IMG/VR virus record: IMGVR_UViG_3300020045_002497
Span: 1-26,852 of that record
Length of the DNA stretch: 26,852 nucleotides
Strand: one strand, 5' to 3'
DNA from: a virus
Lineage: Duplodnaviria; Heunggongvirae; Uroviricota; Caudoviricetes
Made by a program: the position numbers and the translations under genes. Numbering within the stretch: position 1 is the stretch's first letter; each line of letters opens with the position of its first letter. The notes beneath the pieces are model-generated. The model worked only from the letters and a program-made list of their open reading frames with translations. It was not told the DNA's origin and made no database searches. Positions 1 through 13,760 of this stretch are shown here, piece by piece.

Positions 1-51
1 TTAATTTATGAACCTATAATCAAAGTATTATTGTATAAGCTTAAAATTTAA
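1..51 (+). CDS. 3' end of a gene entering the window (LIYEPIIKVLLYKLKI*), possibly carrying the shared C-terminal tag
   Basis: Open frame from base 1 to TAA at 49-51; sequence resembles the YEYLIPLLKEL-type tails of downstream small ORFs. Confidence 0.4.
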   Translation, partial: LIYEPIIKVLLYKLKI

Positions 52-72
52 TTATTGCTGTCGATAGCAAAT

Positions 73-98
73 AACCACTTAGAGAAATCTAGGTGGTT
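73..98 (+). terminator. Intergenic stem-loop, possible intrinsic terminator or processing hairpin
   Basis: AACCACTTAG (73-82) / CTAGGTGGTT (89-98), 10-bp stem with one G-U, 6-nt loop, followed by TATTAT; U-tract is weak. Confidence 0.5.
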
Positions 99-132
99 TA
101 TTATAAAAACTAATCACTAAAACAAAAAAATT

Positions 133-306
133 ATGAAAACATTATTATTATTTATTTTAAAACTAACATTATCATATACTGCAATATATGGATTAGGTTA
201 TTTTTTAACAAACGAAGTTAACCCAATGATTTGGAGTATTTCAGCTAAAATTTGGTTTATACTATTTTTATTATTAACAACTTATACAAATATTGAAGAT
301 TTATGA
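133..306 (+). CDS. Small membrane protein, 57 aa (not in ORF track)
   Basis: ATG at 133 after A-rich leader; MKTLLLFILKLTLSYTAIYGLGYFL...IWFILFLLLTTY has two hydrophobic stretches; TGA overlaps next ATG (ATGA). Confidence 0.7.
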   Translation: MKTLLLFILKLTLSYTAIYGLGYFLTNEVNPMIWSISAKIWFILFLLLTTYTNIEDL

Positions 307-683
307 CACTAATATCGAATAAACAAACTATTAAACAACTTAATTCACAATTAAGTGTGTTAGAAGGTAATCGTAAAGCTTTAAATATTCAATGCGCTCA
401 AATTCAACAAAATTTATCTGAAAATAAAAAACAAATTAATATTCTTGCTAACAATATTAAAAAACTAGAATTACAAGAATCTCAAGAATTAAATGTTACA
501 GAACATGCATTACTGAGATATTGTGAAAGAGTTTTAGATATTGATATTGAAGAAATTAAAAAAGAATTACTTTCAGATAATACTAAAAAATTAGTTAACA
601 CATTAGGTTCTACTGGAGTTTATCCTTATAAGGAATTTAAACTTAAAATTATTAATAATTCAATTATAACCCTTTTAAAATAA
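303..683 (+). CDS. Hypothetical protein: N-terminal coiled coil plus VTEHALLRYCER-type C-terminal domain
   Basis: Heptad-like Q/N/K/L N-half; VTEHALLRYCERV resembles a HAxxRyxER motif recurrent in small phage proteins. Confidence 0.75.
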   Translation: MTLISNKQTIKQLNSQLSVLEGNRKALNIQCAQIQQNLSENKKQINILANNIKKLELQESQELNVTEHALLRYCERVLDIDIEEIKKELLSDNTKKLVNTLGSTGVYPYKEFKLKIINNSIITLLK

Positions 684-689
684 TCTATT

Positions 690-1028
690 ATGAACAAATT
701 ACTTGATCAATATTATCGCATGCTTTACTTCTGTAAAGGTAAACCTACTACATTAGGTCAAATGAGTAATTGGGAATTACAAGGTATTTTATTACTTATT
801 ACTAAATATCCTCAAGGATTATTAAATGGTTATTCTAAAGAATTATATGTTGAAGCTGTTAATTACATTATTCAATGTAGAGCTAATGCTAAAAATCAAA
901 GAGTAACTAACATTGAAACTATATATGCTAATAATGCATTAGAAAGAGCTAATAAACTAGCTGATGCAATATTAATATGTATGTTAAATACTGAAAAACA
1001 ATATAAAAATAAATTAATATTTACTTAA
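690..1028 (+). CDS. Hypothetical protein, 112 aa
   Basis: ORF in operon-like packing; no motif recognised. Confidence 0.7.
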   Translation: MNKLLDQYYRMLYFCKGKPTTLGQMSNWELQGILLLITKYPQGLLNGYSKELYVEAVNYIIQCRANAKNQRVTNIETIYANNALERANKLADAILICMLNTEKQYKNKLIFT

Positions 1029-1029
1029 T

Positions 1030-1377
1030 ATGGAATTAAATGATATAATAGGTGGAAAATATTATGCTGCACATTATATAGGTGAAAATCACCCTACAAT
1101 TATTAAAGCTTTACATGATAAATCTTTTAGACGTTCTACTGGTTTATATACAAGAAATAAAGAATTACAATATCGTTTTATTAAAAGTAATTCATTTGAA
1201 TGTGAAAATCATATAAGATTAGCTACACTAGAGGAAGGTCATTGGTTAAGTTGTTGTATAAATAATGATAAATATATATCTTATAAAGAAGCAATGTTAA
1301 CATTTGTAGACAAATCAATTAATTATCAACAAGATCCTGAATATAATAACATATTAATTAAATTATTAACAACATGA
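1030..1377 (+). CDS. Small paralog family A, with ILIKLL C-terminal tag
   Basis: RLATLEEGHWLSCC...YISYKEAMLTF; ends QQDPEYNNILIKLLTT. Confidence 0.85.
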   Translation: MELNDIIGGKYYAAHYIGENHPTIIKALHDKSFRRSTGLYTRNKELQYRFIKSNSFECENHIRLATLEEGHWLSCCINNDKYISYKEAMLTFVDKSINYQQDPEYNNILIKLLTT

Positions 1378-1724
1378 TAAGAAATGAAGATTTAATTGAA
1401 AATACTTATTATTATTCAGAAAAGTATTCAGGTACACTAAATAATAATTTTATTTTAAAATATGAAAAAGATGTAACAAGTTGTTCATTTATTCCAGATT
1501 TTATGAATAAGAATTCACATGCTGATTTTCATAATGATGGAACTTTTAATCATAGAATTACAAGATTAGCAACAGATGAAGAAATACATTGGTTTAAAAT
1601 ATGTTTTGAAGCTAAATCCTATATTAAATATGAAGAAGCTATGAAAACATTTAATCAAATTAAACCTACAATCCAAGATGATCCTAATTTAGGAGAAATA
1701 TTAATAAAATTATTAAATAATTAA
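1374..1724 (+). CDS. Small paralog family A, with ILIKLL tag
   Basis: RLATDEEIHWFKIC...YIKYEEAMKTF; ends QDDPNLGEILIKLLNN. Confidence 0.85.
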   Translation: MIRNEDLIENTYYYSEKYSGTLNNNFILKYEKDVTSCSFIPDFMNKNSHADFHNDGTFNHRITRLATDEEIHWFKICFEAKSYIKYEEAMKTFNQIKPTIQDDPNLGEILIKLLNN

Positions 1725-1725
1725 A

Positions 1726-2091
1726 ATGAAATTAAAAGATTGTAAACATGGAAAAGTATATTATTGGACAACAGGATATAATCATTCACACGGTTATTTA
1801 AATTTATTTCAAAATATACCAGGAGAATCTAATAATATTGAATGTTATATTACTAATGATATAAATCAAAAAAATAATAATGTTGATAGATTATTTTATA
1901 AAAATTCATCAAATAGCTCACCATATGATATTCGTGAAGCTACTCCAGAAGAAGAACATTGGTTGTTAACTTGTAAAGAAGCTAATACGTTTGTAGAATA
2001 TAAAACTGCAATGTTAAGTTTTAGACAACCTAATGTAATAACTAAAGATAGTTCTGACATTAATGAAATACTAATAAAATTATTATCATGA
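1726..2091 (+). CDS. Small paralog family A, with ILIKLL tag
   Basis: REATPEEEHWLLTC...FVEYKTAMLSF; ends KDSSDINEILIKLLS. Confidence 0.85.
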   Translation: MKLKDCKHGKVYYWTTGYNHSHGYLNLFQNIPGESNNIECYITNDINQKNNNVDRLFYKNSSNSSPYDIREATPEEEHWLLTCKEANTFVEYKTAMLSFRQPNVITKDSSDINEILIKLLS

Positions 2092-2414
2092 AATTACCAA
2101 AATTAATTAATGGGGAAATATATTATTGCAATGTATTTAGTAATCCTTATTTGTTTAAAATGCAAAAAAATAAGTCAGATATTAAACATTTACAATGTAA
2201 TAAAGAATATTTTTCAAATTGGGGATGGGATTTTTGGACTGATAGTACACTTACAGAAATTCAAATAGCTTCAGTAGAACAAAAACATTGGTTAAATGAA
2301 TGTATTAAAATCAATGAATACATTTCATATGATGATGCAATGTTATCATTTACTTTAAATATCAAAGATGATCCTGAATTAGGAAATATTCTAATTAAAC
2401 TATTAACTCAATAA
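2088..2414 (+). CDS. Small paralog family A, with ILIKLL tag
   Basis: QIASVEQKHWLNEC...YISYDDAMLSF; ends KDDPELGNILIKLLTQ. Confidence 0.85.
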   Translation: MKLPKLINGEIYYCNVFSNPYLFKMQKNKSDIKHLQCNKEYFSNWGWDFWTDSTLTEIQIASVEQKHWLNECIKINEYISYDDAMLSFTLNIKDDPELGNILIKLLTQ

Positions 2415-2417
2415 ATT

Positions 2418-2651
2418 ATGAAAGGTCATAGACTAAATAAAAGACAACCATTGTCTGAAGCAATTAAACAACATGCTAAATTACATGCTAAATATAAAGA
2501 ATATTCTTTAAAAACTATTCCAGAATTAGAAGAAATGTTACCATTATTAGGTGGTGGATATAAAGAAGTCTGTTTGTCTGTAATGAAAGAAAAGTTTGTA
2601 AATAACTTAAAAGATCAACAAACTCAAGAATTACCTGAAGGAGAAGCTTAA
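2418..2651 (+). CDS. Hypothetical protein, 77 aa
   Basis: ORF fills the gap between packed genes; no tag, no motif. Confidence 0.65.
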   Translation: MKGHRLNKRQPLSEAIKQHAKLHAKYKEYSLKTIPELEEMLPLLGGGYKEVCLSVMKEKFVNNLKDQQTQELPEGEA

Positions 2652-2652
2652 T

Positions 2653-2943
2653 ATGGAAAAGTTTGTATTACCAGAAAAATGGTTTATCAAAAGAACATTT
2701 GATAATGCTGATATTGTAAATGCTTGGATATGTAAAGAAAGAAATAATTCAAATGCTGCATTTTTAACTGATACCGCTACTGTTTTAAGTAATACTAAAT
2801 ATCATAGTTTTCCTGATTCAAATTATACTAATGGTTATACAGAATTAACATTTGAACAATTTTTAGAATATGTTATAAATAAAAAACCAATAATTCAAGA
2901 TAGTACTGAATTAAATAAAATATTAATTAAATTATTAAGTTAA
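2653..2943 (+). CDS. Small paralog family B, with ILIKLL tag
   Basis: FVLPEKWFIK...NAW...YTELTFEQFLEYV; ends QDSTELNKILIKLLS. Confidence 0.85.
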   Translation: MEKFVLPEKWFIKRTFDNADIVNAWICKERNNSNAAFLTDTATVLSNTKYHSFPDSNYTNGYTELTFEQFLEYVINKKPIIQDSTELNKILIKLLS

Positions 2944-3227
2944 TGGAATCTTTTAAATTACCTGAACAATGGGCTATTAAACAAAATCGTAAAGAAATAA
3001 ATGATTGGTTAAATATTCATAAACAAACCAATTCAAATTATAATTCTGTAGATGGTATACATTTGGTACATTATCCTGAATATAATAAATGTCATTTATA
3101 TAGTAAAATTAAACCTGGTTATACTGAAATAACTTTTGAAGAATTTGAAATTTATGTTTTAAAAACTAAAATATATATCCAAGATACAGAATTAAATCAA
3201 ATACTTATTAAACTTTTAACTGAATGA
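2943..3227 (+). CDS. Small paralog family B, with ILIKLL tag
   Basis: FKLPEQWAIK...INDW...YTEITFEEFEIYV; ends QDTELNQILIKLLTE. Confidence 0.85.
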   Translation: MESFKLPEQWAIKQNRKEINDWLNIHKQTNSNYNSVDGIHLVHYPEYNKCHLYSKIKPGYTEITFEEFEIYVLKTKIYIQDTELNQILIKLLTE

Positions 3228-3436
3228 TAACAAAAGATAGAGTGTTAGAAATTATTAATTCTACTAATCCAGGAGAATTAGAACAAATACATGTTATAAC
3301 CAGATATATTTTTGACAAAACTCAATCAGATATATCTGGTATTAATATAAATCCACCACAACATCAAGGTATGATTATATTAATGCATAATATGTATCAA
3401 ACTGCAAAGCAACATTATAGAACTAATGGACAATGA
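3224..3436 (+). CDS. Hypothetical protein, 70 aa
   Basis: ATGA-coupled to the previous gene; overlaps the polymerase start. Confidence 0.65.
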   Translation: MITKDRVLEIINSTNPGELEQIHVITRYIFDKTQSDISGININPPQHQGMIILMHNMYQTAKQHYRTNGQ

Positions 3437-5390
3437 TGCATTATTAAAAGCTTTACAAAATATACCATCTAGTAAGTGGCAAAAAGTTATTTGTGATGTT
3501 GAAGTATATCCTAATGTATTTTTATTAGGTATACAAGATGTTGATACTAAAGAAAAAATTGTTTATGAAATATCAGATAGATTAAATGAATATAATGAAG
3601 TAGTAAAATTTGTTACTACTTTTAATCAATATTTAATAACATTTAACGGAATACATTATGATATTCCTATTTTACTGTATATTGTAAACAATAAATTAGA
3701 AGATGTTAAAGAATATCTTCAAAAATTAAAAGAATGGTCAGATTATATAATTAATAATGACTTTTGGTGGAATGATAGTGAATTAAAAAAATATAAATAT
3801 CAAAACAGATGGATAGACATTGATTTATATTTATATTGGTCTAAAATGCTTAGACTTAGTAAAAAAATAAGCTTAAAAGGACTTGCTATTCAAATGAATT
3901 ATCCTGTAGTACAGGAATTACCATTTGATCCTTCAATGAGCTTAAATCATGCTCAAATTGATGAATTAAGGCATTATAATAGTGTACATGATTTAAGTAT
4001 TACTGATTTATTGTTTACTCAATTTACAGGTAAAGGAACTATTCCTTTAGGTAATTTAGGAACTGTACAATTAAGAGCTAAAGTTAAAGAGAAATATGGA
4101 ATTAACGCAATGTCTTTTGATGCTCCTAAAATAGCATCTGAAGTAATGCTTTACAAATATTGTCAAAAAACTAATCAAAATTTAAAAGTTTTTAAAAAAC
4201 AAAGATTTGAAAAAACACCTTTTCAATTTAAAGATTTATTTAGTGGTTATAAATTTGAATTTAAAACAAAAGTTTTAAAAGATATTTATAATAAATGGAT
4301 GAATAGTTATGATACATTTAATGAAACTTTTACTTGTTTTACTAAAGATCAAGAAGAAGGAATAAAATTATCTGTTGGTGTTGGAGGAATACACAATATT
4401 GTTAAAAATGAAATGTATGAAGCAAATGAAGAATATGAAATTTGTGATATAGATATAGAATCTTTATATCCTACATTTATATTAGGATTACATTGTTTTA
4501 GATTTAAAGAATTAGAAGAAACTTATGAAGAATTTAAACATTTAAGAGTTACTGAATCTAAACCTAATATTAAAAAGTTTAAAGGAACTGATAAAGAACA
4601 ATTCTGGAAAGAAGAAGATGCTTTTAATAAGGTTATTTTAAATGGATTATCTGGACATATTGATCAAGAACATTCTCCATTATATAATAATATTGGTGCA
4701 ATGAAAATGAGATGTATGGGACAATTAGTTCTATTAACAATTATTGAAAAAATACATGAAAAAAATATTAAAATAATACAAGTTAATACTGACGGTTTAA
4801 CTGTATTATTACCTAAATATAAAAAAGATTTATTTGTATCTATTGTTCAAGACACTGAAAAATTATATAGTGTTAAATTTGAATATGGTTATTATCAAAA
4901 AATGATACTTGCAAATGTTAACAATTATTTGGCCCAAGATTTATCTGGTTCAATTAAACAAAAAGGATTATTTGTTGATAAACCAGAACTTGGAAATAGT
5001 GTAGATTATTTAATTATACCTAAAGCATTAAAAGCTTATTATATTGAGAATATACCTGTTAAACAATTTGTTGAATCACATACTAATATCTTGGATTTCT
5101 GTTGTTCACAAAAAGTAGATAAATCCTATCATATAGAGTGGACCAGTCCTCAGTTTATTAAATCTAAACAACAAAGATTAAATAGATTTTATGCATCAAC
5201 TAAAGGTGGTTATATTTATAAATGTAGAAATGGTAAACAAAATCATTTATTGAAAGAATCTGGAGTAATGATTTACAATAATCATAATCCTAATGTATTT
5301 CCTACAGATATTAACTATAAATTCTATATTGCTCAAATAAATAAAATAATAAATGAAATAAATAATAAAAATCAATTAACACTATTTTAA
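3426..5390 (+). CDS. polB: Family B DNA polymerase with 3'-5' exonuclease domain
   Basis: ExoI CDVEVY, ExoII FNGIHYD, motif A DIDIESLYP, motif B KVILNGLSG, motif C QVNTDG; 654 aa. Confidence 0.93.
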   Translation: MDNDALLKALQNIPSSKWQKVICDVEVYPNVFLLGIQDVDTKEKIVYEISDRLNEYNEVVKFVTTFNQYLITFNGIHYDIPILLYIVNNKLEDVKEYLQKLKEWSDYIINNDFWWNDSELKKYKYQNRWIDIDLYLYWSKMLRLSKKISLKGLAIQMNYPVVQELPFDPSMSLNHAQIDELRHYNSVHDLSITDLLFTQFTGKGTIPLGNLGTVQLRAKVKEKYGINAMSFDAPKIASEVMLYKYCQKTNQNLKVFKKQRFEKTPFQFKDLFSGYKFEFKTKVLKDIYNKWMNSYDTFNETFTCFTKDQEEGIKLSVGVGGIHNIVKNEMYEANEEYEICDIDIESLYPTFILGLHCFRFKELEETYEEFKHLRVTESKPNIKKFKGTDKEQFWKEEDAFNKVILNGLSGHIDQEHSPLYNNIGAMKMRCMGQLVLLTIIEKIHEKNIKIIQVNTDGLTVLLPKYKKDLFVSIVQDTEKLYSVKFEYGYYQKMILANVNNYLAQDLSGSIKQKGLFVDKPELGNSVDYLIIPKALKAYYIENIPVKQFVESHTNILDFCCSQKVDKSYHIEWTSPQFIKSKQQRLNRFYASTKGGYIYKCRNGKQNHLLKESGVMIYNNHNPNVFPTDINYKFYIAQINKIINEINNKNQLTLF

Positions 5391-5391
5391 A

Positions 5392-5727
5392 ATGGAAAAA
5401 TATGGATTTATAATTGGAAATTGGTACAAATATATTGAAAATGATAAAAGTGCTTATTATATAAAAATAGAAAATGTTACAGACACAAGTAATTCAAATG
5501 GTATTTTTCGTAAAATATTTTATTCTGAAAAAATTCAAAATAATAAACATTTAATTTATGCTGGATACTGGGCAAATACAGAAATGGAAACTATCGCGTT
5601 AGAAAATCCAGTTGATATTTCTGAAATAATAGAATTTTTACCTAAAGATCATCCTGATTTATTAAAAATAACTAAACAATCCTATGATTATTTAATACCA
5701 ATATTAACTAAATTAAATACAACTTAA
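5392..5727 (+). CDS. Hypothetical protein with SYDYLIPIL-type C-terminal tag
   Basis: Ends KQSYDYLIPILTKLNTT. Confidence 0.8.
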   Translation: MEKYGFIIGNWYKYIENDKSAYYIKIENVTDTSNSNGIFRKIFYSEKIQNNKHLIYAGYWANTEMETIALENPVDISEIIEFLPKDHPDLLKITKQSYDYLIPILTKLNTT

Positions 5728-5728
5728 T

Positions 5729-6004
5729 ATGTACAAAGTAGTAAATACTAAAACTCAAGAAGAATGGGATATTGTTACTAAAACTTTAGATTACAAATGG
5801 ACAAGAGTTAATAATTTTAAATCTTACGGTACTAATACTTGTATTAATCTTACTTCTAGAGGATATGGAAATTTAAAATTTTATAAAAATGAAAATTCAT
5901 TAATTTATACTTTTGAAGAATGGTGTACATTAAATACAAAATCTAATGCTACAGATGATCTATCATATCTTACTGAATTTTTAATTAAAAATGAAATAAC
6001 ATGA
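5729..6004 (+). CDS. Small protein related to family B, with DDLSYL-type tag
   Basis: TKTQEEWD...TCI.L...GY...YTFEEW; ends TDDLSYLTEFLIKNEIT. Confidence 0.8.
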   Translation: MYKVVNTKTQEEWDIVTKTLDYKWTRVNNFKSYGTNTCINLTSRGYGNLKFYKNENSLIYTFEEWCTLNTKSNATDDLSYLTEFLIKNEIT

Positions 6005-7302
6005 TGTTAGAATGTGTACATGTAACTACTCAGGAAGAAGCTGATGAAGTATTAGAATTTATAGGTACTTGGAGACATGAAAATATGATTAAAAATACTG
6101 GAGAATGTATTATTTATTTAGATGATTCTGGATATGATAGACTTGATAGATATAAAGAACCAAAAGTATATGAAAAATATAACTTAATTACATTTGAAGA
6201 ATTTTTAGAAAAATATAAACATATAAAAACAAATAAACAATCAATGGAAAAACAAATGCTTGATGTCTTAAATAAGACATATGACAATTTACATTTAAGA
6301 AGAACAACAGTACCTCTGTTTATGTCAAATCCTGGAATAGGTAAAACTAGTATTATCCAGAAATTTGCTAAAGATAAAGGTGTTAAATTAGTGAAAATTA
6401 CTTTAAGTCAAAGAATGCCTAACGAGGTAGTAGGTATGGTTATGCCTGATGTAATTAGTAAAGCCTTATTAGTATTTAATAGTCATGAACTTGAACAGTT
6501 AAATGATGGAGATGTACTATTCTTTGATGAAGTATTTAATGGTACTTTAAAACAAACATTAGATGCTTTATTAAATCTATTAGAAGATAGAACATTACCT
6601 ACAGGTAAGAAATTAGCAGATGTAATGATTGTTGCAGCTAGTAATCCTCAAGGACTGATTAACTTAACTCCTCAGATTAAACAACGTTTTGAAAGAGAAG
6701 ATTTGAAATTTAATGCTGAAGAATTCCAAGTTTATTTGAAAAATAAATATGGTATGCCAGAATCTATTTCATCTCATCTTTGTACATTAATTAATAAAGA
6801 GAAATTTGAACCGAATGATTGGAACTTTGTAACACCTAGAAGTGTTGAGAAAGCTATCAATAAAATTGGTTGTGAATTAAAATCAAACTATGATGATGTT
6901 TTACTTCCATTTTTAACTAAAACTATTGAATCTCCTATGGATATTTCAAAATTAAATGTTAAAAAAGGTGATCAAGTAGAATATTTAAATATTTTGAAAT
7001 TATTAATTGCTAATTCAAATGTTAAATTAAGAGATACTGAAGAAGTTAAGTATCCTGAATTAAAAGTGAAAAGACTTAAAGCTGAAGAAATAGCTAAAGA
7101 ATTAGCAGAAAAAGAAGCTGCTAGAGAAAAAGCTGTTGCAGAATTTAAAGCAAAAGAAGCCGTTGATGCTGCAGCACAATTAGCTGCTGAACAAACAAAA
7201 ACTACATCTACAAAAAATAAATCTAAAAAACCAACACAAGCAAAAGATGATTCAACAAATCACAAGCAAGAAAGTGGAGTTACCAGTAATCTTCTTAATT
7301 GA
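6001..7302 (+). CDS. MoxR-like AAA+ ATPase with an N-terminal small-protein-like domain (probable internal start ATG 6244) and an A/E/K-rich C-terminal extension
   Basis: Walker A SNPGIGKT, Walker B LFFDE, sensor-1 AASNP, RF arginine finger (KQRFE), TPRS sensor-2; VWA gene immediately downstream. Confidence 0.85.
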   Translation: MMLECVHVTTQEEADEVLEFIGTWRHENMIKNTGECIIYLDDSGYDRLDRYKEPKVYEKYNLITFEEFLEKYKHIKTNKQSMEKQMLDVLNKTYDNLHLRRTTVPLFMSNPGIGKTSIIQKFAKDKGVKLVKITLSQRMPNEVVGMVMPDVISKALLVFNSHELEQLNDGDVLFFDEVFNGTLKQTLDALLNLLEDRTLPTGKKLADVMIVAASNPQGLINLTPQIKQRFEREDLKFNAEEFQVYLKNKYGMPESISSHLCTLINKEKFEPNDWNFVTPRSVEKAINKIGCELKSNYDDVLLPFLTKTIESPMDISKLNVKKGDQVEYLNILKLLIANSNVKLRDTEEVKYPELKVKRLKAEEIAKELAEKEAAREKAVAEFKAKEAVDAAAQLAAEQTKTTSTKNKSKKPTQAKDDSTNHKQESGVTSNLLN

Positions 7303-8182
7303 GGATGAAGCTGACTTCCAACAATTACCCAAAGGATTACCTTATGTTATAGGTAAACAATCTGAACTTCCGTTCATTACTCTTTTCTTGGAATTTCAAG
7401 TTTTATACAGATCTTGTATGAAAACTTTAATTCCTATTAAATGGTTAGATTGTTTAACTAAAATTGGATATGGTAATTCTCTCCGTAAGTATGAACTAAA
7501 ATCAGGTGGTGTCTATGGTGCTGGTGATAATGGTCAATATCTTTTAAAAAAAGAAGATTTTATTACAGATCAATATTTAGTTGATTTTGATAAATTATCT
7601 GAATTAAAGATTTTACCAGTATGGTTAGAAGACTTAAAAGCTTCTATTGAAACTAACATTATTGATGAAGTAATGTTTGATCCAACAGGCTTTAATAAAC
7701 AATTAGGAATGAACATTGGTGCAGCAGGACTTAAACACAATTTGAAGAATCTATTAATTTTAGATATTTCTTCTTCAATGCCAAAATCAGTAGTATTAAC
7801 TATTACTAATTTAGCTAAATTGATGTCTAAAAAGTTCTATGCAGATGTAATCTTAACAGGTAGAAGAAGCTATCTAGTAGATTATGAAGAAGTCCCTAAT
7901 ACAGACATCGTAGGTGCAGTAGCATCTTATGGTGGAGGTAATGAAGGTGACATGTACAAAGAAATTGTAAAACAACCTAAAGAATATGGTACAGTAATAT
8001 CATTTGGTGATAATGATTGTCCAGGTATTGAAAAAGGAGATAAAGATATGAATTTTAAAGTTCATACATTATATTCTTTACATACTGAAGGTAATCGCAC
8101 TAGTAATATTACTGGTTATGCTAGAGGATTTGATCCTGTAGAAACCTTTATCGTTAAGGACTGGATCTCAACAATTCAATAA
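7247..8182 (+). CDS. VWA-domain protein (MoxR partner)
   Basis: MIDAS-type ILDISSSM (DxSxS), later GGGN and VISFGD; overlaps the ATPase gene by 56 nt. Confidence 0.8.
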   Translation: MIQQITSKKVELPVIFLIEDEADFQQLPKGLPYVIGKQSELPFITLFLEFQVLYRSCMKTLIPIKWLDCLTKIGYGNSLRKYELKSGGVYGAGDNGQYLLKKEDFITDQYLVDFDKLSELKILPVWLEDLKASIETNIIDEVMFDPTGFNKQLGMNIGAAGLKHNLKNLLILDISSSMPKSVVLTITNLAKLMSKKFYADVILTGRRSYLVDYEEVPNTDIVGAVASYGGGNEGDMYKEIVKQPKEYGTVISFGDNDCPGIEKGDKDMNFKVHTLYSLHTEGNRTSNITGYARGFDPVETFIVKDWISTIQ

Positions 8183-8209
8183 ATTAAAGAGTAAAAAAAA
8201 GTAAACCCC

Positions 8210-8235
8210 GTGTAGATACCTATCAGTATTTACAC
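8210..8235 (+). promoter_or_regulatory. Intergenic hairpin upstream of a long A-rich leader
   Basis: GTGTAGATAC (8210-8219) / GTATTTACAC (8226-8235), 10-bp stem with one G-U, 6-nt loop; no U-tract on the + strand. Confidence 0.5.
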
Positions 8236-8275
8236 ACTAAATAAAATAAATAACAATTAAAAAAAAACAAAAAAC

Positions 8276-8767
8276 ATGGAATTTTTAACAGTAAAAGAAT
8301 TAGCATTAAATCCTGCAGGTTACTTAATCAGCGCAACATCTAAAAAACCAGTAACTCACCCAGCATTTGTTGCTCAACAAAAAAATGCAGAGTACACTGT
8401 AAAATTAGCTGACGCTATTAAAGGTAAAACTTTCAAATGTGGTAAAACTGATGATTTGGATAAAATCAAAGCTGAAGTATTAGCAGCAATTAACGCTAAA
8501 AACGTTAAGCAATTTGTTGCTACTCCTGAAAAACCAAAAAGTGCAGTACAAGATGAATTAGTTCAACATGCTTTAAACTTTGCTAACTACGAAGTTAAAA
8601 AAGGAGAAGTTGCAAAAATTAATGAAGTTATGGCTGAATTTGAAGCTATTACTGCAGTTGAAGAAGTTGGTGATTATTTCTCTGAAGGTTTAGTTAAATT
8701 AACTAAAATCTATACTACAGAAGAAATTTTAGCAGCTGTTCAAGCTACTGCTGAAACATTGAAATAA
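8276..8767 (+). CDS. Ala/Lys/Glu-rich helical hypothetical protein, probably highly expressed
   Basis: 163 aa; visibly uses AAC/TAC/TTC/ATC/GCT codons more than neighbours; long A-rich leader. Confidence 0.85.
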   Translation: MEFLTVKELALNPAGYLISATSKKPVTHPAFVAQQKNAEYTVKLADAIKGKTFKCGKTDDLDKIKAEVLAAINAKNVKQFVATPEKPKSAVQDELVQHALNFANYEVKKGEVAKINEVMAEFEAITAVEEVGDYFSEGLVKLTKIYTTEEILAAVQATAETLK

Positions 8768-8773
8768 TAAATT

Positions 8774-8843
8774 AAATAAATAATAGGTGTCAAATATTGG
8801 CAGTTGATTAAATGTTGTGACAACAACAGCCTATTATTTATTT
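8774..8843 (+). other. Structured intergenic element, copy A
   Basis: Perfect 14-bp inverted repeat AAATAAATAATAGG / CCTATTATTTATTT enclosing 42 nt; similar to 17496-17562. Confidence 0.65.
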
Positions 8844-8857
8844 TAAATTTAAAAAAC

Positions 8858-9601
8858 ATGCGTGAACATTTTGAGAATGCTATTGAATTATTAAAAAAAC
8901 AACAAATTAATGGATGTATTACAGGTTCTTGTATGCTTGAATTCAATGAAAGTTGGAATCAAGACATAGATTTATTTGTATATGATAAAGCTAGCTTTAC
9001 TAAAATACTTTGGTTTATGTATTATAATCCAATGTTTAATATTCTAGATCCATTAGAAAATCATAAATTCAAAGATTTTGTAGATAATGATAAATCATCA
9101 TTAGAGCAACTTGGTTTGATAACAATAAAATTTAAATATAATCTATTGATAGATGTCAATGTTATATTTAAGAAATTTCATAAAACATGTTTTGATGTAA
9201 TAAGTAATTTTGATTTAGATCTAATTGCTACAGCTTATGACATTAAAACAGGAAAAACAATCTCTTTAAGAGAAACAACAGGATTAGAAGGTACTTGGAA
9301 CAAATGGAATCCAACTTTCTATCAACATGAATTCTGGTCAACAAAGCGTCTATTAAGACAATTTGAACGTGTAATTAAATACACAGAAAGAGGTTATGAT
9401 CTATCTACAGTTACTGATAAGTATATATTAATAGTAGAAGAAATCATTCAATCAGAGAATTTTTATAAAACAGAGAAAGGAACAAAGTACTTTGAAGATA
9501 ATATTGAAACCTTTGAAGTAGTATTAAAAATATTGCAAGAGTGGAAGAAGACTAAATCTATCTCACCTGCTGAATTACTCACACTTAAAACGTTGATTTA
9601 A
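8858..9601 (+). CDS. Nucleotidyltransferase, Pol-beta superfamily (CCA/poly(A) polymerase head-like); start revised from 8804 to ATG 8858
   Basis: GCITGS...QDIDLF (hGS..DhD), third Asp in IDVN, ISNFDLD at the position of the RRDFT motif. Confidence 0.7.
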   Translation: MREHFENAIELLKKQQINGCITGSCMLEFNESWNQDIDLFVYDKASFTKILWFMYYNPMFNILDPLENHKFKDFVDNDKSSLEQLGLITIKFKYNLLIDVNVIFKKFHKTCFDVISNFDLDLIATAYDIKTGKTISLRETTGLEGTWNKWNPTFYQHEFWSTKRLLRQFERVIKYTERGYDLSTVTDKYILIVEEIIQSENFYKTEKGTKYFEDNIETFEVVLKILQEWKKTKSISPAELLTLKTLI

Positions 9602-9902
9602 TGGACGATTTTATATTACCTGATACTTGGTGTATAAAAATAACTGAAGATAATCGTAAAATTATAAATGATTGGAAAATAAAACAACCAGTTTTAAATG
9701 ATGATTTATTTAAACATTTACAATATATATATGTTAATCATGGACGGTGGTTGGATCAGATGATCATTACAAAAAACAAGAATTATCAATTGAAGAATTT
9801 ATACAATATGTATTAAAACAAGAGATTGAAGTTAAACAAAAATCAATTAAGGAAGATACTACTTATCTCATTAATTTTTTAAAACAAAATAATATTACAT
9901 AA
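9601..9902 (+). pseudogene. Family B small gene with a -1 frameshift near 9738-9760
   Basis: Frame 1 gives FILPDTWCIKITEDNRKIINDW; the shifted frame continues SDDHYKKQELSIEEFIQYVL...KEDTTYLINFLKQNNIT* (TAA 9900-9902), restoring the family motif and tag. Confidence 0.75.
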
Positions 9903-9903
9903 T

Positions 9904-10086
9904 ATGTCATCAGAGATGGATAAACTCCTTGAGGAGTTAAGAGCAATGAAAAAAACTGGCCCTACATTTAATGCTAAAACTGTATGGGATGGTATTGCAC
10001 AAAGAAAAGATTTCTCAGAAATGGGATTTAAATCAATTGAGGAATTTGAACAATGGATTTCAGATAATCCTTACGCTAATTTATAA
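9904..10086 (+). CDS. Hypothetical protein, 60 aa
   Basis: Packed ORF with plausible composition. Confidence 0.65.
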   Translation: MSSEMDKLLEELRAMKKTGPTFNAKTVWDGIAQRKDFSEMGFKSIEEFEQWISDNPYANL

Positions 10087-10089
10087 GAT

Positions 10090-10341
10090 ATGAAAAAGTT
10101 TATAAAAGATAACCACCTATCATTTGGTGAAGGGATGAGAAATTCTACAGTTACCGTACTTATCGGGTATTCTCAACATTTAGGATTATCTCAAAATGAT
10201 TTAGAAGTAGAATTATCTGATGAAATAGAAGCAGATAGTTTTATTCAAGAAGAAATAAATAGATTATGGATTTATTGTAAAAGAAATGATTACAAGAAAT
10301 TCTGGAAAACAGCTCAGGCTAAAAAACAATATACATTTTAA
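10090..10341 (+). CDS. Stand-alone PriCT (primase C-terminal)-like helical domain
   Basis: FGEGMRNSTVTVLIGYSQHLG matches the EGxRNxxLxxLxGxL..G pattern of PriCT-1; lies near a Prim-Pol domain gene. Confidence 0.55.
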   Translation: MKKFIKDNHLSFGEGMRNSTVTVLIGYSQHLGLSQNDLEVELSDEIEADSFIQEEINRLWIYCKRNDYKKFWKTAQAKKQYTF

Positions 10342-10351
10342 ATTAAAAATT

Positions 10352-10654
10352 ATGATAAGACAACCAATTAATTCAGTAATAGGAATAAAATTTAGAAGTT
10401 GCACTGATTACTATACAGGTAAAAAAGAATCTAAGACATATGGTTATGTTGAATTAAATAATGGTATCTTAGAAATTTCTAAATTTAAAAATGCAGGTAA
10501 ATTAAATATTGAACTTCGTGTAATGAGGGGTAATACATTAAAACCTGAATTGAAGAAAATAGTAAATTCTTATTCAGATATTAGACATTATGTTAAGGAA
10601 TTAAACTATGAAGACATGTCTGAATTACAAAATCTATTATCTGAAATACAATGA
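10352..10654 (+). CDS. Hypothetical protein, 100 aa (start revised from 10286), with tag-like end
   Basis: ATG 10352 after A-rich leader; ends YEDMSELQNLLSEIQ, aligning with KEDLSYLIPLLKDLQ. Confidence 0.7.
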   Translation: MIRQPINSVIGIKFRSCTDYYTGKKESKTYGYVELNNGILEISKFKNAGKLNIELRVMRGNTLKPELKKIVNSYSDIRHYVKELNYEDMSELQNLLSEIQ

Positions 10655-11127
10655 AATCATTCCTATTAAATAAAGCAACAAATACACCTATTGTTCGCTG
10701 GAGTCTTGTACCTAACAATTGTTTTTTTGAAGGAGCTATTCCTGAAGGTTATGCTTTAGCAGTAGCTCCATCAGAAAATTATATTGTGTTAGATGTAGAT
10801 AAAAAAAATGGTAAAAATGGATTTGCGAGTATTCCAATTCACATATCTGGATTATTAGAACATACTTTTTATTATTATACTAAATCAGGTGGTGCTCATT
10901 ATTGGATTAAGTACACTGGAGATAAAGTATTATTAAATACATCTACTAAATACGGTTTAGATTTACGCATAGGAGCTAAACCAGGTAATAGTGGTGGATA
11001 TGTCAAATATCCTCATAATGTAGACATTAGACAATGTATTCAGTTAATTAAAGAATCTTCTTCAGAGTTAAATGTGTGGTTAGAATCATTATTTTGTGGA
11101 GTAAATCATGAAAAATATGGAAAATAA
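10651..11127 (+). CDS. Bifunctional DNA primase/polymerase N-terminal (Prim-Pol, AEP) domain
   Basis: IVLDVD (motif I), TKSGGAHYW (motif II), LDLR..GGYVKYP (motif III). Confidence 0.8.
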   Translation: MKSFLLNKATNTPIVRWSLVPNNCFFEGAIPEGYALAVAPSENYIVLDVDKKNGKNGFASIPIHISGLLEHTFYYYTKSGGAHYWIKYTGDKVLLNTSTKYGLDLRIGAKPGNSGGYVKYPHNVDIRQCIQLIKESSSELNVWLESLFCGVNHEKYGK

Positions 11128-11461
11128 CAATTTTAAAAAGGGAGATTATGTAGTTTTATTAAGTGGATGTGATGGTACAAATACATGGCCTGATGTAATA
11201 CCTATAAATTATTGTTATAAATTAAGAGAAGACTCTAATGATTTAACATTTAGAGTTGCTAGAGATACACGAGGAAGTAAATCCAATGGTTGGTATACTA
11301 CTCCACCATATGATAGTAAACTTTTATTAAGAGCTGCTACATCATCTGAAATTAAATTATATGAAGAATTTGGTAAACCATTTAGTGTTTCTATTTATAT
11401 TCCTGAATCTTATGAATATTTAATTCCATTACTTAAAGAATTAGATAATGAAACTACATGA
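11108..11461 (+). CDS. Small protein, family A-like (RAAT..EI), with SYEYLIPLL tag
   Basis: LRAATSSEIKLY; ends PESYEYLIPLLKELDNETT. Confidence 0.8.
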   Translation: MKNMENNNFKKGDYVVLLSGCDGTNTWPDVIPINYCYKLREDSNDLTFRVARDTRGSKSNGWYTTPPYDSKLLLRAATSSEIKLYEEFGKPFSVSIYIPESYEYLIPLLKELDNETT

Positions 11462-11864
11462 TATTAAACAAGATATAGAAAAATTAATTCCTGGAATTGA
11501 TTATTCTACATTTGTTGGACACATGTCTATTCAACGTAAATCTTATAAATTTAAATTAGAAGAAATGAAAGAAGAAATAGAAAGTGATGTAAAAATTGGT
11601 GATTTTATACAATATGTACAGGGTGGTAGACATAATTCAGATGTTGTTCCTAGATACTCATCTACATTTCAACAACATGAAATAGGTAATTATACTTATA
11701 TTTTAGATATTGTTGAAGATACTAAAGGAAAATTAGGATATAAAGTTCAATGTGAACGTGGAATTACATATATAAGAAGAGAAGCTTTTAAACTTGTTCT
11801 TAATGCTCCACAACCTAAAGAAGACCTATCTTACCTTATTCCACTATTAAAAGATTTACAATGA
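11448..11864 (+). CDS. Hypothetical protein with EDLSYLIPLL tag
   Basis: Ends PKEDLSYLIPLLKDLQ. Confidence 0.8.
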   Translation: MKLHDIKQDIEKLIPGIDYSTFVGHMSIQRKSYKFKLEEMKEEIESDVKIGDFIQYVQGGRHNSDVVPRYSSTFQQHEIGNYTYILDIVEDTKGKLGYKVQCERGITYIRREAFKLVLNAPQPKEDLSYLIPLLKDLQ

Positions 11865-12184
11865 AAAAGAGATTTAGTTTACCTACAAATTGGTGTGTGA
11901 TAATAACTGAAGAAAATCGAGAGATGCTTGAAAGTTATAGAGTAACTATGAATTGTAATAATTCTGACGGTAATACATGTTTAGATGATGATGCGTTAAA
12001 TAAATATTTAATAGCTAACGATTTATATAGTGATAATATGTATTGGGGATTTGAACAACCTGATGAATATGTTTTAATTTCATTTGAGGATTTTCAAAAA
12101 TATATTTTAAAAAAGAACCCTAATGTTCCAAAAGAAGATTTAATATTCTTAAAAAATTTATTAATTCAAAATGGTATAAACTAA
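11861..12184 (+). CDS. Small paralog family B, with EDL-type tag
   Basis: FSLPTNWCVIITEENREML...YVLISFEDFQKYIL; ends PKEDLIFLKNLLIQNGIN. Confidence 0.85.
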   Translation: MKKRFSLPTNWCVIITEENREMLESYRVTMNCNNSDGNTCLDDDALNKYLIANDLYSDNMYWGFEQPDEYVLISFEDFQKYILKKNPNVPKEDLIFLKNLLIQNGIN

Positions 12185-12477
12185 TGGAAGAAGAATTTAT
12201 ATTACCTAATTTATGGTGGTTAAAAGCAGATGAAAATAATTATAATTTAATTGATAAATGGAGAAATGATTCTTTTAAAGGTAGAACACCATTTGATAGA
12301 AATTATCATTATGTATCTTATAGTGGTTGAGGTTCTACTCCAGAAAAAGATGGTTTTATAATAACTACAAATCAATTTATAAAATATGTACTCAATATTG
12401 AAGAACCAATTACCAATAATACACCAGAAGATTTATCATATCTGATAGATTTATTTAAACAACAACAAATAATTTAA
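12184..12477 (+). pseudogene. Family B small gene interrupted by an in-frame TGA (12328-12330); not in ORF track
   Basis: MEEEFILPNLWWLKADENNYNLIDKW...SYSG*GST...NQFIKYVL...PEDLSYLIDLFKQQQII* with TAA 12475-12477; TAATG-coupled to the upstream gene. Confidence 0.8.
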
Positions 12478-12478
12478 T

Positions 12479-12673
12479 ATGGAAACATTAGTTAAAAAAC
12501 CAACAATAGAAGTATCTAAAGCTAAATTAACAGCAATGGTAGATTCTGGATTAAAGAAAGAACAAATTGCAGAATGTTTTGGATTAAACATGGCTCAAAC
12601 AACTAAATTATTAAAATCTGCTGGATTGAAAATTCGTAAATTTCATTCTCCGGCATTTATATTGACAGCGTAA
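12479..12673 (+). CDS. Small helix-turn-helix protein
   Basis: GLKKEQIAECFGLNMAQTTKLLKSAG has an HTH pattern. Confidence 0.65.
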   Translation: METLVKKPTIEVSKAKLTAMVDSGLKKEQIAECFGLNMAQTTKLLKSAGLKIRKFHSPAFILTA

Positions 12674-12674
12674 T

Positions 12675-13760
12675 ATGACAACTAGGTCGGATATTCAAAA
12701 TAAAGTACTTGACATTTTAAAAGATGTTAATAGGGGTACAGTAGCTCTTTCAGGCTCAGGAGGTAAAACACTAATAGGATTAAGACATATGGATTCTGTT
12801 CAATCAGGACATTTTAAATTTTTAGTTGTTGCTCCTAAGAAATCAATATTTGAATCTTGGAAAGATGAAGCTATTAAATTTAAATTTGAACATCTTCTTA
12901 GTGATATTACTTTTTCAACATATTTATCTTTAAGTAAACAAGATATAAACAGTTATGATGTTATTTATTTGGATGAATGTCATTCACTTACGTTAACTTG
13001 TAATTCAATATTGAGTAAATTTAAAGGTAAAATTATAGGACTTACTGGTACACCACCAACTAACTCTAAATCAGAGAAATGGTTTATGGTAGATAAGTAT
13101 TGTCCTATAGTCTATTCTTATAATACTGATGAAGCTATAGACCATTCAATTTTGAATGACTATAGAATCATTGTTCATTATGTAGACTTAGATACAGAAA
13201 AAAACATTAAGGTTGTGAAACCTACTGCAACTTGGATGACAAGTGAAACTGCAATCTATAATTACTGGTCAAATAGAGTAGAAACTTCTTTTGGTAAGAT
13301 GAAACAAATAGCAGCTATACAACGCATGAAGGCTATGCAAGCATTTAAATCTAAAGAGTTAAAAGCTACTTACCTATTAAATAGTATTGGAATGTATAGT
13401 AAATGTCTTTGCTTTGCAAGTACTCAAGAGCAATCAGCTAGAATCTGTCCAATAACTTATCACTCAAAGAATAAGTTTTCAGAATCAAATTTAGAGTCTT
13501 TTAAACAAGGAAAATTACTGAAATTATGTGCTGTAGAACAATTAAATGAAGGAATCAATATACCTAATCTTAAATATGGTGTGATAATGCACTCTTACGG
13601 CAATGAGAGAAAAGCTAGTCAAAAGATATTTAGATTTCTTAGATTAAATCCAGATGATTGTGCAACAGTTCATATATTATGTTTTAAAAATACTATTGAT
13701 GAACAATGGGTGAAATCAGCATTGGGAGGATTCAAACAAAGCAAAATTGTTTATGTCTAA
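12675..13760 (+). CDS. Superfamily 2 (DExH) helicase
   Basis: SGSGGKT, LVVAP, LDECH, GLTGT, EGINIPNL, QKIFRFLR. Confidence 0.88.
   Translation: MTTRSDIQNKVLDILKDVNRGTVALSGSGGKTLIGLRHMDSVQSGHFKFLVVAPKKSIFESWKDEAIKFKFEHLLSDITFSTYLSLSKQDINSYDVIYLDECHSLTLTCNSILSKFKGKIIGLTGTPPTNSKSEKWFMVDKYCPIVYSYNTDEAIDHSILNDYRIIVHYVDLDTEKNIKVVKPTATWMTSETAIYNYWSNRVETSFGKMKQIAAIQRMKAMQAFKSKELKATYLLNSIGMYSKCLCFASTQEQSARICPITYHSKNKFSESNLESFKQGKLLKLCAVEQLNEGINIPNLKYGVIMHSYGNERKASQKIFRFLRLNPDDCATVHILCFKNTIDEQWVKSALGGFKQSKIVYV

Follow-up and report, generated by a model that had tools for sequence, protein, structure and literature searches.

What do fourteen small proteins of a phage replication region have in common, when their bodies are of many kinds and their last residues nearly alike? 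The question is raised by a stretch of 26,852 nucleotides (nt), here called the window, which corresponds to positions 1 to 26,852 of IMG/VR virus record IMGVR_UViG_3300020045_002497 and makes up the opening 26.8 kb of a phage contig of 90,852 bp (27% G+C). Six tandem genes 5′ of its DNA polymerase gene (positions 1030–3227) end in ILIKLL followed by one or two residues (tag T1, ..DSTELNKILIKLLS), and eight genes 3′ of the polymerase gene (5392–12477) end in [ED]D.x[YF]L[ITK]x[LF][LF] followed by three to seven residues (tag T2, ..PKEDLSYLIPLLKDLQ). Four of the T1 proteins have a body containing RxATxEExHW (body A; genes A1 to A4, Table 1) and two a body containing FxLPxxW (body B; B1 and B2), while the T2 proteins comprise three B bodies (B3 to B5), one A-like body (A5) and four others (C, D1, E and F); in all, the tag is carried by at least six unrelated body families. 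On balance, we think it somewhat probable that these tags serve as docking peptides and address a partner common to them.

Within the window, the tag variant followed position in every gene (6/6 T1 on the 5′ side and 8/8 T2 on the 3′ side, exact probability 1/3003) and was not associated with body type (A, four T1 and one T2; B, two T1 and three T2), as the initial annotation had proposed. Its observation that the A and B proteins of 1030–3227 share the ILIKLL end held for all six genes, and the DxxYL form that it assigned to genes 9601, 11861, 12184 and 11108 was recovered in each, with the provisos that 9601 is frameshifted, 12184 is interrupted by a TGA codon and F replaces Y in 11861. Related loci, cited by L numbers, were collected by searching IMG/VR with A, B and VWA profiles, which yielded 103 loci. 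In the close relatives among these, T1-type tails (I[LIY][IK][KR]LL) were 5′ of the polymerase in 24/24 cases and T2 or T3 tails were 3′ of it in 56/62, the 3′ exceptions being two pattern false positives and one rearranged genome. A single body type can take the tag of its neighborhood: the B2-type body has T1 in the window, but in L105 the B2-type body P0150 (56% identical to window B2) lies 3′ of PrimPol and ends in T2, and inside the fused L027 protein a B2-type body has no tail.

T1 and T2 were aligned in register by MAFFT with a common Φ-L-x-x-L-L core, and intermediate tails such as ..PLIKLLKxI.. are present in relatives; the two are thus variants of one motif family rather than two unrelated tags. 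The T1 variant is uniform across non-orthologous A and B paralogues, being ILIKLL in the window and L019 and IYK[KR]LL on both A and B tails of L001, L002 and L008; other or mixed forms occur in L035 (ILIKLL and ILKRLL), L079 (ILKKLL) and L080 (IIKKLL and IYKRLL). As read from the tail sequences, the variant therefore shifts in concert among non-orthologous paralogues from genome to genome (ILIKLL versus I[YLI]K[KR]LL).

In structural models, the tag is set apart from the body. AlphaFold2 models of A2 and of B1, the latter built from a family alignment, both consist of a folded body, a low-confidence linker and a terminal helix. In the A2 model (predicted local distance difference test score, pLDDT, 86), five strands (residues 11–65, forming a sheet or barrel) and two helices are followed by a linker (94–103) and the tail helix (104–115), and in the B1 model the body (approximately residues 1–75) is separated from the tail helix (85–95) by residues 79–84, for which pLDDT was below 50. 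The tag is accordingly modeled as a 12- to 20-residue C-terminal amphipathic helix with the Φ-L-x-x-L-L core behind a flexible linker. A scoring matrix was derived from 58 distinct T2 tails, on which its median score was 28.5 bits; at a threshold of at least 12 bits, it found one internal match among 285,839 internal sites, compared to three in shuffled proteins, and the near-absence of internal matches indicates that the motif is strictly C-terminal. The six ILIKLL cores of the window differ in 33 of 90 pairwise codon comparisons, all of them synonymous, with no amino-acid changes, and their synonymous diversity is 0.37 compared to 0.47 expected at saturation with codons drawn from genome usage. 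Across 13 B1 orthologues, mean pairwise identity of the body is 43% and ELNxILIKLL is invariant. These results show that the tag is a separate, strictly C-terminal module under purifying selection much stronger than that on the bodies.

The initial annotation had interpreted the shared ends as tails swapped or homogenized locally, by recombination or gene conversion near gene ends. Recent gene conversion was rejected as the source of the identical ILIKLL cores, because converted tracts would match at synonymous sites also; moreover, B2 orthologues in three genomes share an unusual CTT..CTT codon choice, which indicates that tails descend with their genes. Swapping by recombination is supported. 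Separate comparison of bodies and tails, which the initial annotation had suggested, revealed incongruent rather than congruent histories. In the A-body tree, A3 is sister to L008_8369 (support 99/96) despite an ILIKLL versus an IYKRLL tail, A1 clusters with L019_4480, L001_4990 and L002_10001, and tail state requires five changes, about as many as shuffled labels need. An ILIKLL clade was rejected by the approximately unbiased (AU) test (Δ log likelihood 69.7, p = 2e-8).

One exchange was mapped to within a few codons using L104, a 1.1-kb Logan contig that, where aligned, is 92–93% identical in DNA to window positions 11812–12580 and has two genes where the window has the single gene B4. The B4 body is that of the L104 gene at 101–412 (277/300 nt over the stretch compared), and the last 56 nt of B4 align with the tail of the L104 gene that follows (54/56), with no real match to the tail of its own L104 orthologue. 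The junction falls at 12115/12116, within YILKK codons and 69 nt before the stop; the event is a deletion or unequal exchange between tandem paralogues. The adjacent gene B5 is nearly identical to L104 over its first 26 nt, 73% identical with 31 gaps over the body, and, beginning at the YVLN codons, 93% identical once more across the tail and on into the gene that follows, and it looks as if the body was replaced between conserved edges. Bodies and tags are thus shown to reassort by recombination in the conserved codons of the body-linker junction, and the body-tail incongruence and the L104 breakpoint support the modular body-plus-tail architecture that had been postulated.

Exchange of tails between neighbors by unequal recombination is therefore one demonstrated cause of the dependence on position; a second may be that T1 and T2 address different sites or partners. 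If history were the only cause, T1 and T2 would be functionally equivalent and tandem duplication with unequal recombination would have spread whichever tail was local, a view that is compatible with docking and disputes just the claim of two partners. B4 demonstrably bears the tail of its neighbor, the conserved junction codons of tandem paralogues are usable as recombination sites, and T1 and T2 are in register with known intermediates. However, the T1/T2 split persists across genomes in which the VWA protein is 60–84% identical and the polymerase is of two types, a divergence over which equivalent tags should blur; in addition, T1 is far more constrained than T2, and the tag on the B2-type body is T1 when the gene lies upstream and T2 when it lies downstream. 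We consider purely historical equivalence unlikely.

The docking interpretation draws in part on what happens to the same domains in other phages. A search of a 1.84-billion-protein library with the B domain gave 2567 representative hits, mostly proteins of 300–960 residues with several B copies, and all of the small B-domain representatives that were fetched (29/29) end in a T1, T2 or T3 tail. In more distant phages, A and B bodies are joined within one polypeptide in the order A-B-x-B, where they stop exactly at AM..F or YVL and are untagged; the fused L027 protein has as its second B domain the sister of window B2 (support 97/98, 55% identity), the C body is also present in fused multi-domain proteins, and the fused relatives consist of repeated small domains of types A, B, C and D. 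That domains are tagged when free and untagged when covalently attached suggests that the tag substitutes for a covalent tether. The tag would tether each free small domain to a common hub, replacing the covalent link that other phages provide in 300- to 960-amino-acid multi-domain proteins or in N-terminal fusions to an ATPase. A similar architecture with a different terminal peptide occurs in another phage lineage, where four tandem small genes 5′ of the polymerase (L030, 1357–2382) have differing bodies, B and A5 types among them, and end in ..INDYNIF, ..INNNYEIF, ..INNDYSIF and ..VVNDYEIF (..[IV]N[ND][DN]Y[ENS]IF); one gene with the L030-type tag is present at L096:7483–8007. This likeness of design strengthens the interpretation of the tag as an exchangeable docking signal.

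The same fusions could be explained by self-assembly, in which the hydrophobic helices bundle with one another and the T1 and T2 sets form separate non-covalent versions of the multi-domain proteins. Consistent with this, A and B domains are covalently joined as A-B-x-B in related phages, the T1 helix, as read from its sequence, is hydrophobic over more than half of its circumference, and a single variant is common to all paralogues of a genome, such that the concerted change of T1 would mirror mutual compatibility. However, L069 and L088 have a single tagged gene and L098 has two, so in those genomes the tag cannot exist for the sake of hetero-assembly; the IF-type tag of L030, with the same architectural role, has six residues and is too short to bundle, and the T1/T2 helix itself has only about three turns. 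Self-assembly is in our view quite unlikely. A sorting or turnover signal, be it a degron for a host protease, a membrane helix or a virion-packaging signal for injection, would fit a tag that is strictly C-terminal and exposed on a linker of low confidence in the AlphaFold2 models, and injection has been predicted for polyvalent proteins (PMC5512222), to which the multi-domain relatives are loosely similar. Against such a signal, which we judge very unlikely, the residues after the core differ in identity and in number (one or two for T1, three to seven for T2), as would not be expected if a free C-terminal carboxylate were recognized, the genes are located with the replication functions and not among late genes, and the fused relatives have no recognizable enzymatic domain. 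Membrane-targeting helices are usually cationic, while acidic residues precede the tag. An element of the DNA or RNA (a promoter, translation-initiation region or recombination site at gene ends, with conservation of the peptide as a by-product) is hardly credible, although tag DNA lies just 5′ of the next start codon in a tightly packed region and the junction codons do act as recombination sites, since synonymous positions vary freely with amino acids unchanged, the tag is tied to the end of the upstream gene (A1 and B1 have no preceding tag and the untagged genes 2418 and 3224 have one), and a promoter and terminator consensus scan of positions 1–13000, in itself uninformative, found fewer promoter-like sites than in shuffled sequences and 0 plus-strand terminators.

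If the tag docks on a shared partner, the AAA+/VWA machine encoded in the window is the leading, though tentative, candidate for that partner. The gene at 6001–7302 encodes a MoxR-like AAA+ ATPase (Pfam AAA_5, 4e-10; AAA, 3e-9) in which GIGKT (Walker A) and DEVFNG are kept in 15 relatives; the N-domain is variable or absent in relatives, the core beginning at M82. It is followed by a gene for a probable VWA-type partner in which D173, S175 and S177 are invariant in 8 relatives, with no Pfam VWA hit at E 0.01. Apart from gene 5729, the loci examined had the D-type body only within fused proteins or at the N-terminus of the AAA+ ATPase, as its N-domain. In L023, the AAA+ N-domain is an A5-type body, and iterative search linked A5 to that domain (1e-20) and to window A2 (3e-9). 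In L069 and L088, the ATPase lacks an N-domain, starting at the core methionine M82, and a T2-tagged gene lies directly 5′ of it. Tags were found only in loci with the AAA-VWA block, with a VWA protein at least 56% identical to that of the window. In this scheme, the hub for T2 would most likely be the AAA+ ATPase with its probable VWA partner, and the tagged proteins would serve as interchangeable, trans-acting N-domains or adaptors.

For complex prediction, AAA+ residues 1–345, the VWA protein, A5 as partner and Mg were used as inputs. The scores were 0.42, 0.43 and 0.37, with contact agreement of at least 46% and partner pLDDT of at least 66, and three controls, including one in which the AAA+ protein was replaced, all scored 0.00; the verdict was "weak support." In calibration, 58 of 80 solved complexes attained the pass mark, as did 2 of 110 mismatched pairs; among scores of 0.60 or less, only 7 of the 80 solved complexes and both mismatches did so. 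Because the score vanished on replacement of the AAA+ protein, nothing points to the VWA protein, which was not scored separately. The prediction fits the fusion evidence and proves nothing about the tag itself.

Several observations weigh against a tag that docks on this machine. L035 has T1 genes and no AAA-VWA pair in the 17 kb seen, L065 and L099–L103 have a distant AAA-VWA pair and no tags, and the co-occurrence of tags with the pair is confounded by shared ancestry. The complex scores lie where passes are more often wrong than right unless the prior is good, and the prediction gave no interface, so contact between tag and ATPase cannot be claimed. The dependence on position has a demonstrated historical cause and by itself is therefore no proof of two partners. 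The B-body tree, which was meant to separate 5′ from 3′ B bodies, is almost unresolved, with some rows imperfectly cut. Nothing links T1 to a particular partner; its conserved neighbors g690, g2418 and g3224 also occur in T1-free loci. The cargo or target side of the model is blank, since the bodies match no recognizable fold or family: no Pfam or PHROG family was above threshold for ten tagged proteins and no Pfam family for seven fused relatives (454–881 amino acids), A and B models had no significant Foldseek match in PDB, the A model gave only weak PWWP- or chromo-like Foldseek rows (E > 1), a wide VIA-align search with the B model gave no significant fold (best Z 2.7), and ESM Atlas had no named cluster for B1.

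Several candidate origins and partners of the tags were tried and rejected. The genes g690, g2418 and g3224 are not obligate partners of T1, being present without T1 genes in L069, L078 and L098, and the co-occurrence runs one way only. Docking of T1 on the DNA polymerase is unlikely, as T1 clusters lie beside two types of polymerase and a phmmer search with the window polymerase does not retrieve the second type. Derivation of T2 from the first helix of the AAA+ module (MEKQMLDVLNK) and mimicry by T2 of the conserved C-terminal helix of the ATPase (VEYLNILKLLI) were both rejected on negative T2-matrix scores.

Table 1. Tagged genes and the adjacent ATPase and VWA genes of the window (positions as in the window; T1 and T2 as defined in the text)
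Feature	Position	Strand	Description	C-terminal peptide	Basis
A1	1030..1377	+	A body, T1	..DPEYNNILIKLLTT	Open reading frame (ORF) and tail
A2	1374..1724	+	A body, T1	..DDPNLGEILIKLLNN	ORF, tail, AlphaFold2 model mde66048d31da
A3	1726..2091	+	A body, T1	..SSDINEILIKLLS	A-body tree
A4	2088..2414	+	A body, T1	..DDPELGNILIKLLTQ	ORF and tail
B1	2653..2943	+	B body, T1	..KKPIIQDSTELNKILIKLLS	AlphaFold2 model mb221d527955d
B2	2943..3227	+	B body, T1	..IQDTELNQILIKLLTE	Body tree, identity to P0150
C	5392..5727	+	IIGNWY-type body, T2	..QSYDYLIPILTKLNTT	ORF, tail
D1	5729..6004	+	D-type body, T2	..TDDLSYLTEFLIKNEIT	Body occurrence across loci
ATPase	6001..7302	+	MoxR-like AAA+ ATPase, D-type N-domain residues 1–81, candidate tag hub		Pfam AAA_5
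VWA	7247..8182	+	Probable VWA-type partner of the AAA+ ATPase, DISSSMP		D173, S175, S177 invariant
B3	9601..9902	+	B body, T2, −1 frameshift near 9753	..EDTTYLINFLKQNNIT	ORFs, tail
E	10286..10654	+	Body with weak T2-like tail	..NYEDMSELQNLLSEIQ	Orthologues in L008, L019, L079
A5	11108..11461	+	A-like body (FKKGDYVV..RAATSSE), T2	..ESYEYLIPLLKELDNETT	Iterative search
F	11448..11864	+	Body, T2	..KEDLSYLIPLLKDLQ	ORF, tail
B4	11861..12184	+	Chimera: B body to 12115, linker and tail 12116–12184	..KEDLIFLKNLLIQNGIN	L104 comparison
B5	12184..12477	+	B body, T2, in-frame TGA 12328–12330	..PEDLSYLIDLFKQQQII	ORFs, L104 comparison

In three of the T2 genes, the assignment requires comment. The tail of B3 lies in the second of two ORFs (9601–9816 and 9747–9902) and is reached only through the −1 shift; a gene at the equivalent position of L019 (12675–12968) is intact, and the split is either a real pseudogene or an assembly error. 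The tail of B5 is reached only by reading through the TGA, for which the intact L104 orthologue has Trp (GQGWGG). Some crAss-like phages recode stop codons; here TGA is an ordinary stop elsewhere in the window (ATGA overlaps), aragorn found 0 tRNAs, and hence no suppressor tRNA, in the 90.8-kb contig, and beyond this codon nothing in the genome points to recoding, so the codon probably reflects either a nonsense mutation of TGG to TGA or an error in sequencing. The tail of E is a weaker T2 variant, EDMSELQNLL, and the gene is always directly 5′ of PrimPol.

From 1 to 12.7 kb, every gene is on the plus strand, and the genes are tightly packed with frequent ATGA overlaps. The family-A DNA polymerase (3426–5390) is approximately 29% identical to crAss-like phage polymerases; further 3′, the T2 genes lie around a block consisting of the AAA+ ATPase, the probable VWA protein, g8276, g8858 and PrimPol. 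Close relatives (VWA 56–92% identical to that of the window) retain this layout. The window DNA had no near match among GenBank phages, and two queries, the VWA protein and one A-family protein, gave 0 matches in 50,697 GenBank phage records.

The ATPase region has further features of note. The ATPase and VWA frames overlap by 56 nt (7247–7302), and the ATPase C-terminus, ..NHKQESGVTSNLLN, is conserved in several relatives, perhaps on account of the VWA N-terminus encoded in the overlap and not for any function that this C-terminus has itself. At AAA+ residues 231–233 (window 6691–6699), after a conserved QIKQRF, the two ILIKLL genomes for which an ATPase sequence is available, the window and L019, have ERE, and all 13 other relatives have I[RK][YI], mostly IRY; this comparison is uncorrected for phylogeny and the shared ERE may be due to common ancestry. 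D1 (5729–6004) and the ATPase N-domain (6001–6245) form tandem D-type domains, of which D1 is closer to the ATPase N-domains of L019, L066 and L002 (MYKVVxxKTQEEWD) than to that of the window ATPase, which resembles those of L008 and L078; this pattern suggests allele replacement that left the old N-domain as a tagged gene. In L001, the AAA+ gene is split in two (8747–9169 and 9635–10237), and for the approximately 470 nt between the pieces an intron, a mobile insertion and a disruption are all conceivable.

The polymerase gene is one of two very different types in close relatives with the same flanking genes (compared at window 3426–5390, L019:6441–8333, L008:10050–12044 and L001:6513–8399; C-termini ..NKNQLTLF or ..ITISDCWTK), and by this comparison it appears to have been swapped as a cassette among otherwise syntenic genomes. 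The PrimPol (158 amino acids) ends in ..SSSELNVWLESLFCGVNHEKYGK (11040–11127), with an ELNxWLExLF helix kept in all relatives, including the tag-less L065; this helix is tag-like by eye and was left out of the tag set. The protein g8858 (247 amino acids) ends in ..SPAELLTLKTLI (9560–9601) in all relatives, and L069 and L078 encode a second protein, of 239 amino acids, with the same ..ELLTLKTLA ending.

Taken together, the tags, the fusions and the junction exchanges would be compatible with a plug-in adaptor system, in which swappable recognition domains are clipped to a MoxR-like AAA+/VWA machine, the two tag classes correspond to two sites or hubs, and recombination at the junction rapidly reshuffles specificity; this fuller scheme is speculative, and we put it forward as doubtful but possible. 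If correct, it would be a phage counterpart of those viral families of adaptors by which a single machine is hijacked for many targets. Should the tags prove to be docking peptides, they offer a direct experimental handle on approximately 14 functionally uncharacterized proteins per genome, as fishing with a single peptide ought to identify the hub, after which the bodies ought to lead to their respective targets, and the system would provide a first clue to the function of a MoxR-like AAA+/VWA pair within the replication module of a phage. The locus also captures evolution in progress, with the same domains present as fusions, as separate tagged proteins and with tags exchanged by recombination, which can be placed to within a few codons.

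A full-text literature search yielded no account of a tag family of this kind, whether in crAss-like phages or in others. That diverse proteins can have a docking peptide in common is a familiar principle, exemplified by AAA+ adaptors, SSB tips, clamp tails and viral F-box-like families. In poxviruses, ankyrin-repeat/PRANC (F-box-like) families combine variable target-binding bodies with a short conserved C-terminal motif that addresses one cellular machine, the host ubiquitin ligase, and their genes turn over by duplication and recombination; these are, however, families of eukaryotic viruses with one body type, the ankyrin repeats, whereas the phage tag occurs on many unrelated bodies. In replication, short docking tails include the tips of single-stranded DNA-binding protein (SSB; ..DDDIPF) and the clamp-binding tails of T4 gp43, gp33 and gp55, and the β-clamp-binding consensus is QL[SD]LF or QLxLxL. 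Like the phage tags, these are terminal peptides of different proteins that address one hub in a replication setting, and the ..NDYEIF end of the L030 lineage resembles the acidic-aromatic SSB tip. Unlike them, T1 and T2 have neither the clamp glutamine (the glutamine-led pattern was found in 0/14 window tails) nor the acidic-aromatic end of SSB, and the tagged proteins are not recognizable replication enzymes.

Polyvalent proteins unite disparate, mostly enzymatic domains in one polypeptide, and their packaging has been predicted (Iyer et al., 2017; PMC5512222). Similarly, related phages string A, B, C, D and A5 domains into proteins of 300–960 amino acids with stand-alone versions beside them, but no catalytic domain was recognized in the phage fusions, and PMC5512222 describes no tag system. 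Pairs of MoxR AAA+ and VWA proteins (NorQ/NorD, CbbQ/CbbO and RavA/ViaA) are remodeling machines in which the MIDAS (an adhesion site that depends on a metal ion) of the VWA protein binds an acidic residue of the target (PMC9976466). The phage likewise has an AAA_5-type ATPase gene followed by a gene with a DxSxS motif, and most phage tags have Asp or Glu just before the helix, although some T2 tails, such as ..INMKYLIKLF, have no acidic residue. The phage system differs from the MoxR pairs in that the N-domains of its ATPase are variable and come from the repertoire of tagged bodies.

In SspB, a body that binds substrate is followed by a flexible linker and then by a short C-terminal peptide, through which the protein is tethered to an AAA+ enzyme. 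SspB is a tethering adaptor of the AAA+ machine ClpX in E. coli (PMC9963277). The phage proteins have no sequence similarity to this system, their ATPase is of the MoxR type, with a VWA protein as its probable partner and with no protease, and binding of the phage tags is putative. Instead of a single adaptor, the phage has up to 14 per genome, from at least six body families and with two tag classes. Common to both is the layout of body, linker and terminal peptide, to which the phages add that the same bodies also double as N-domains of the AAA+ ATPase.

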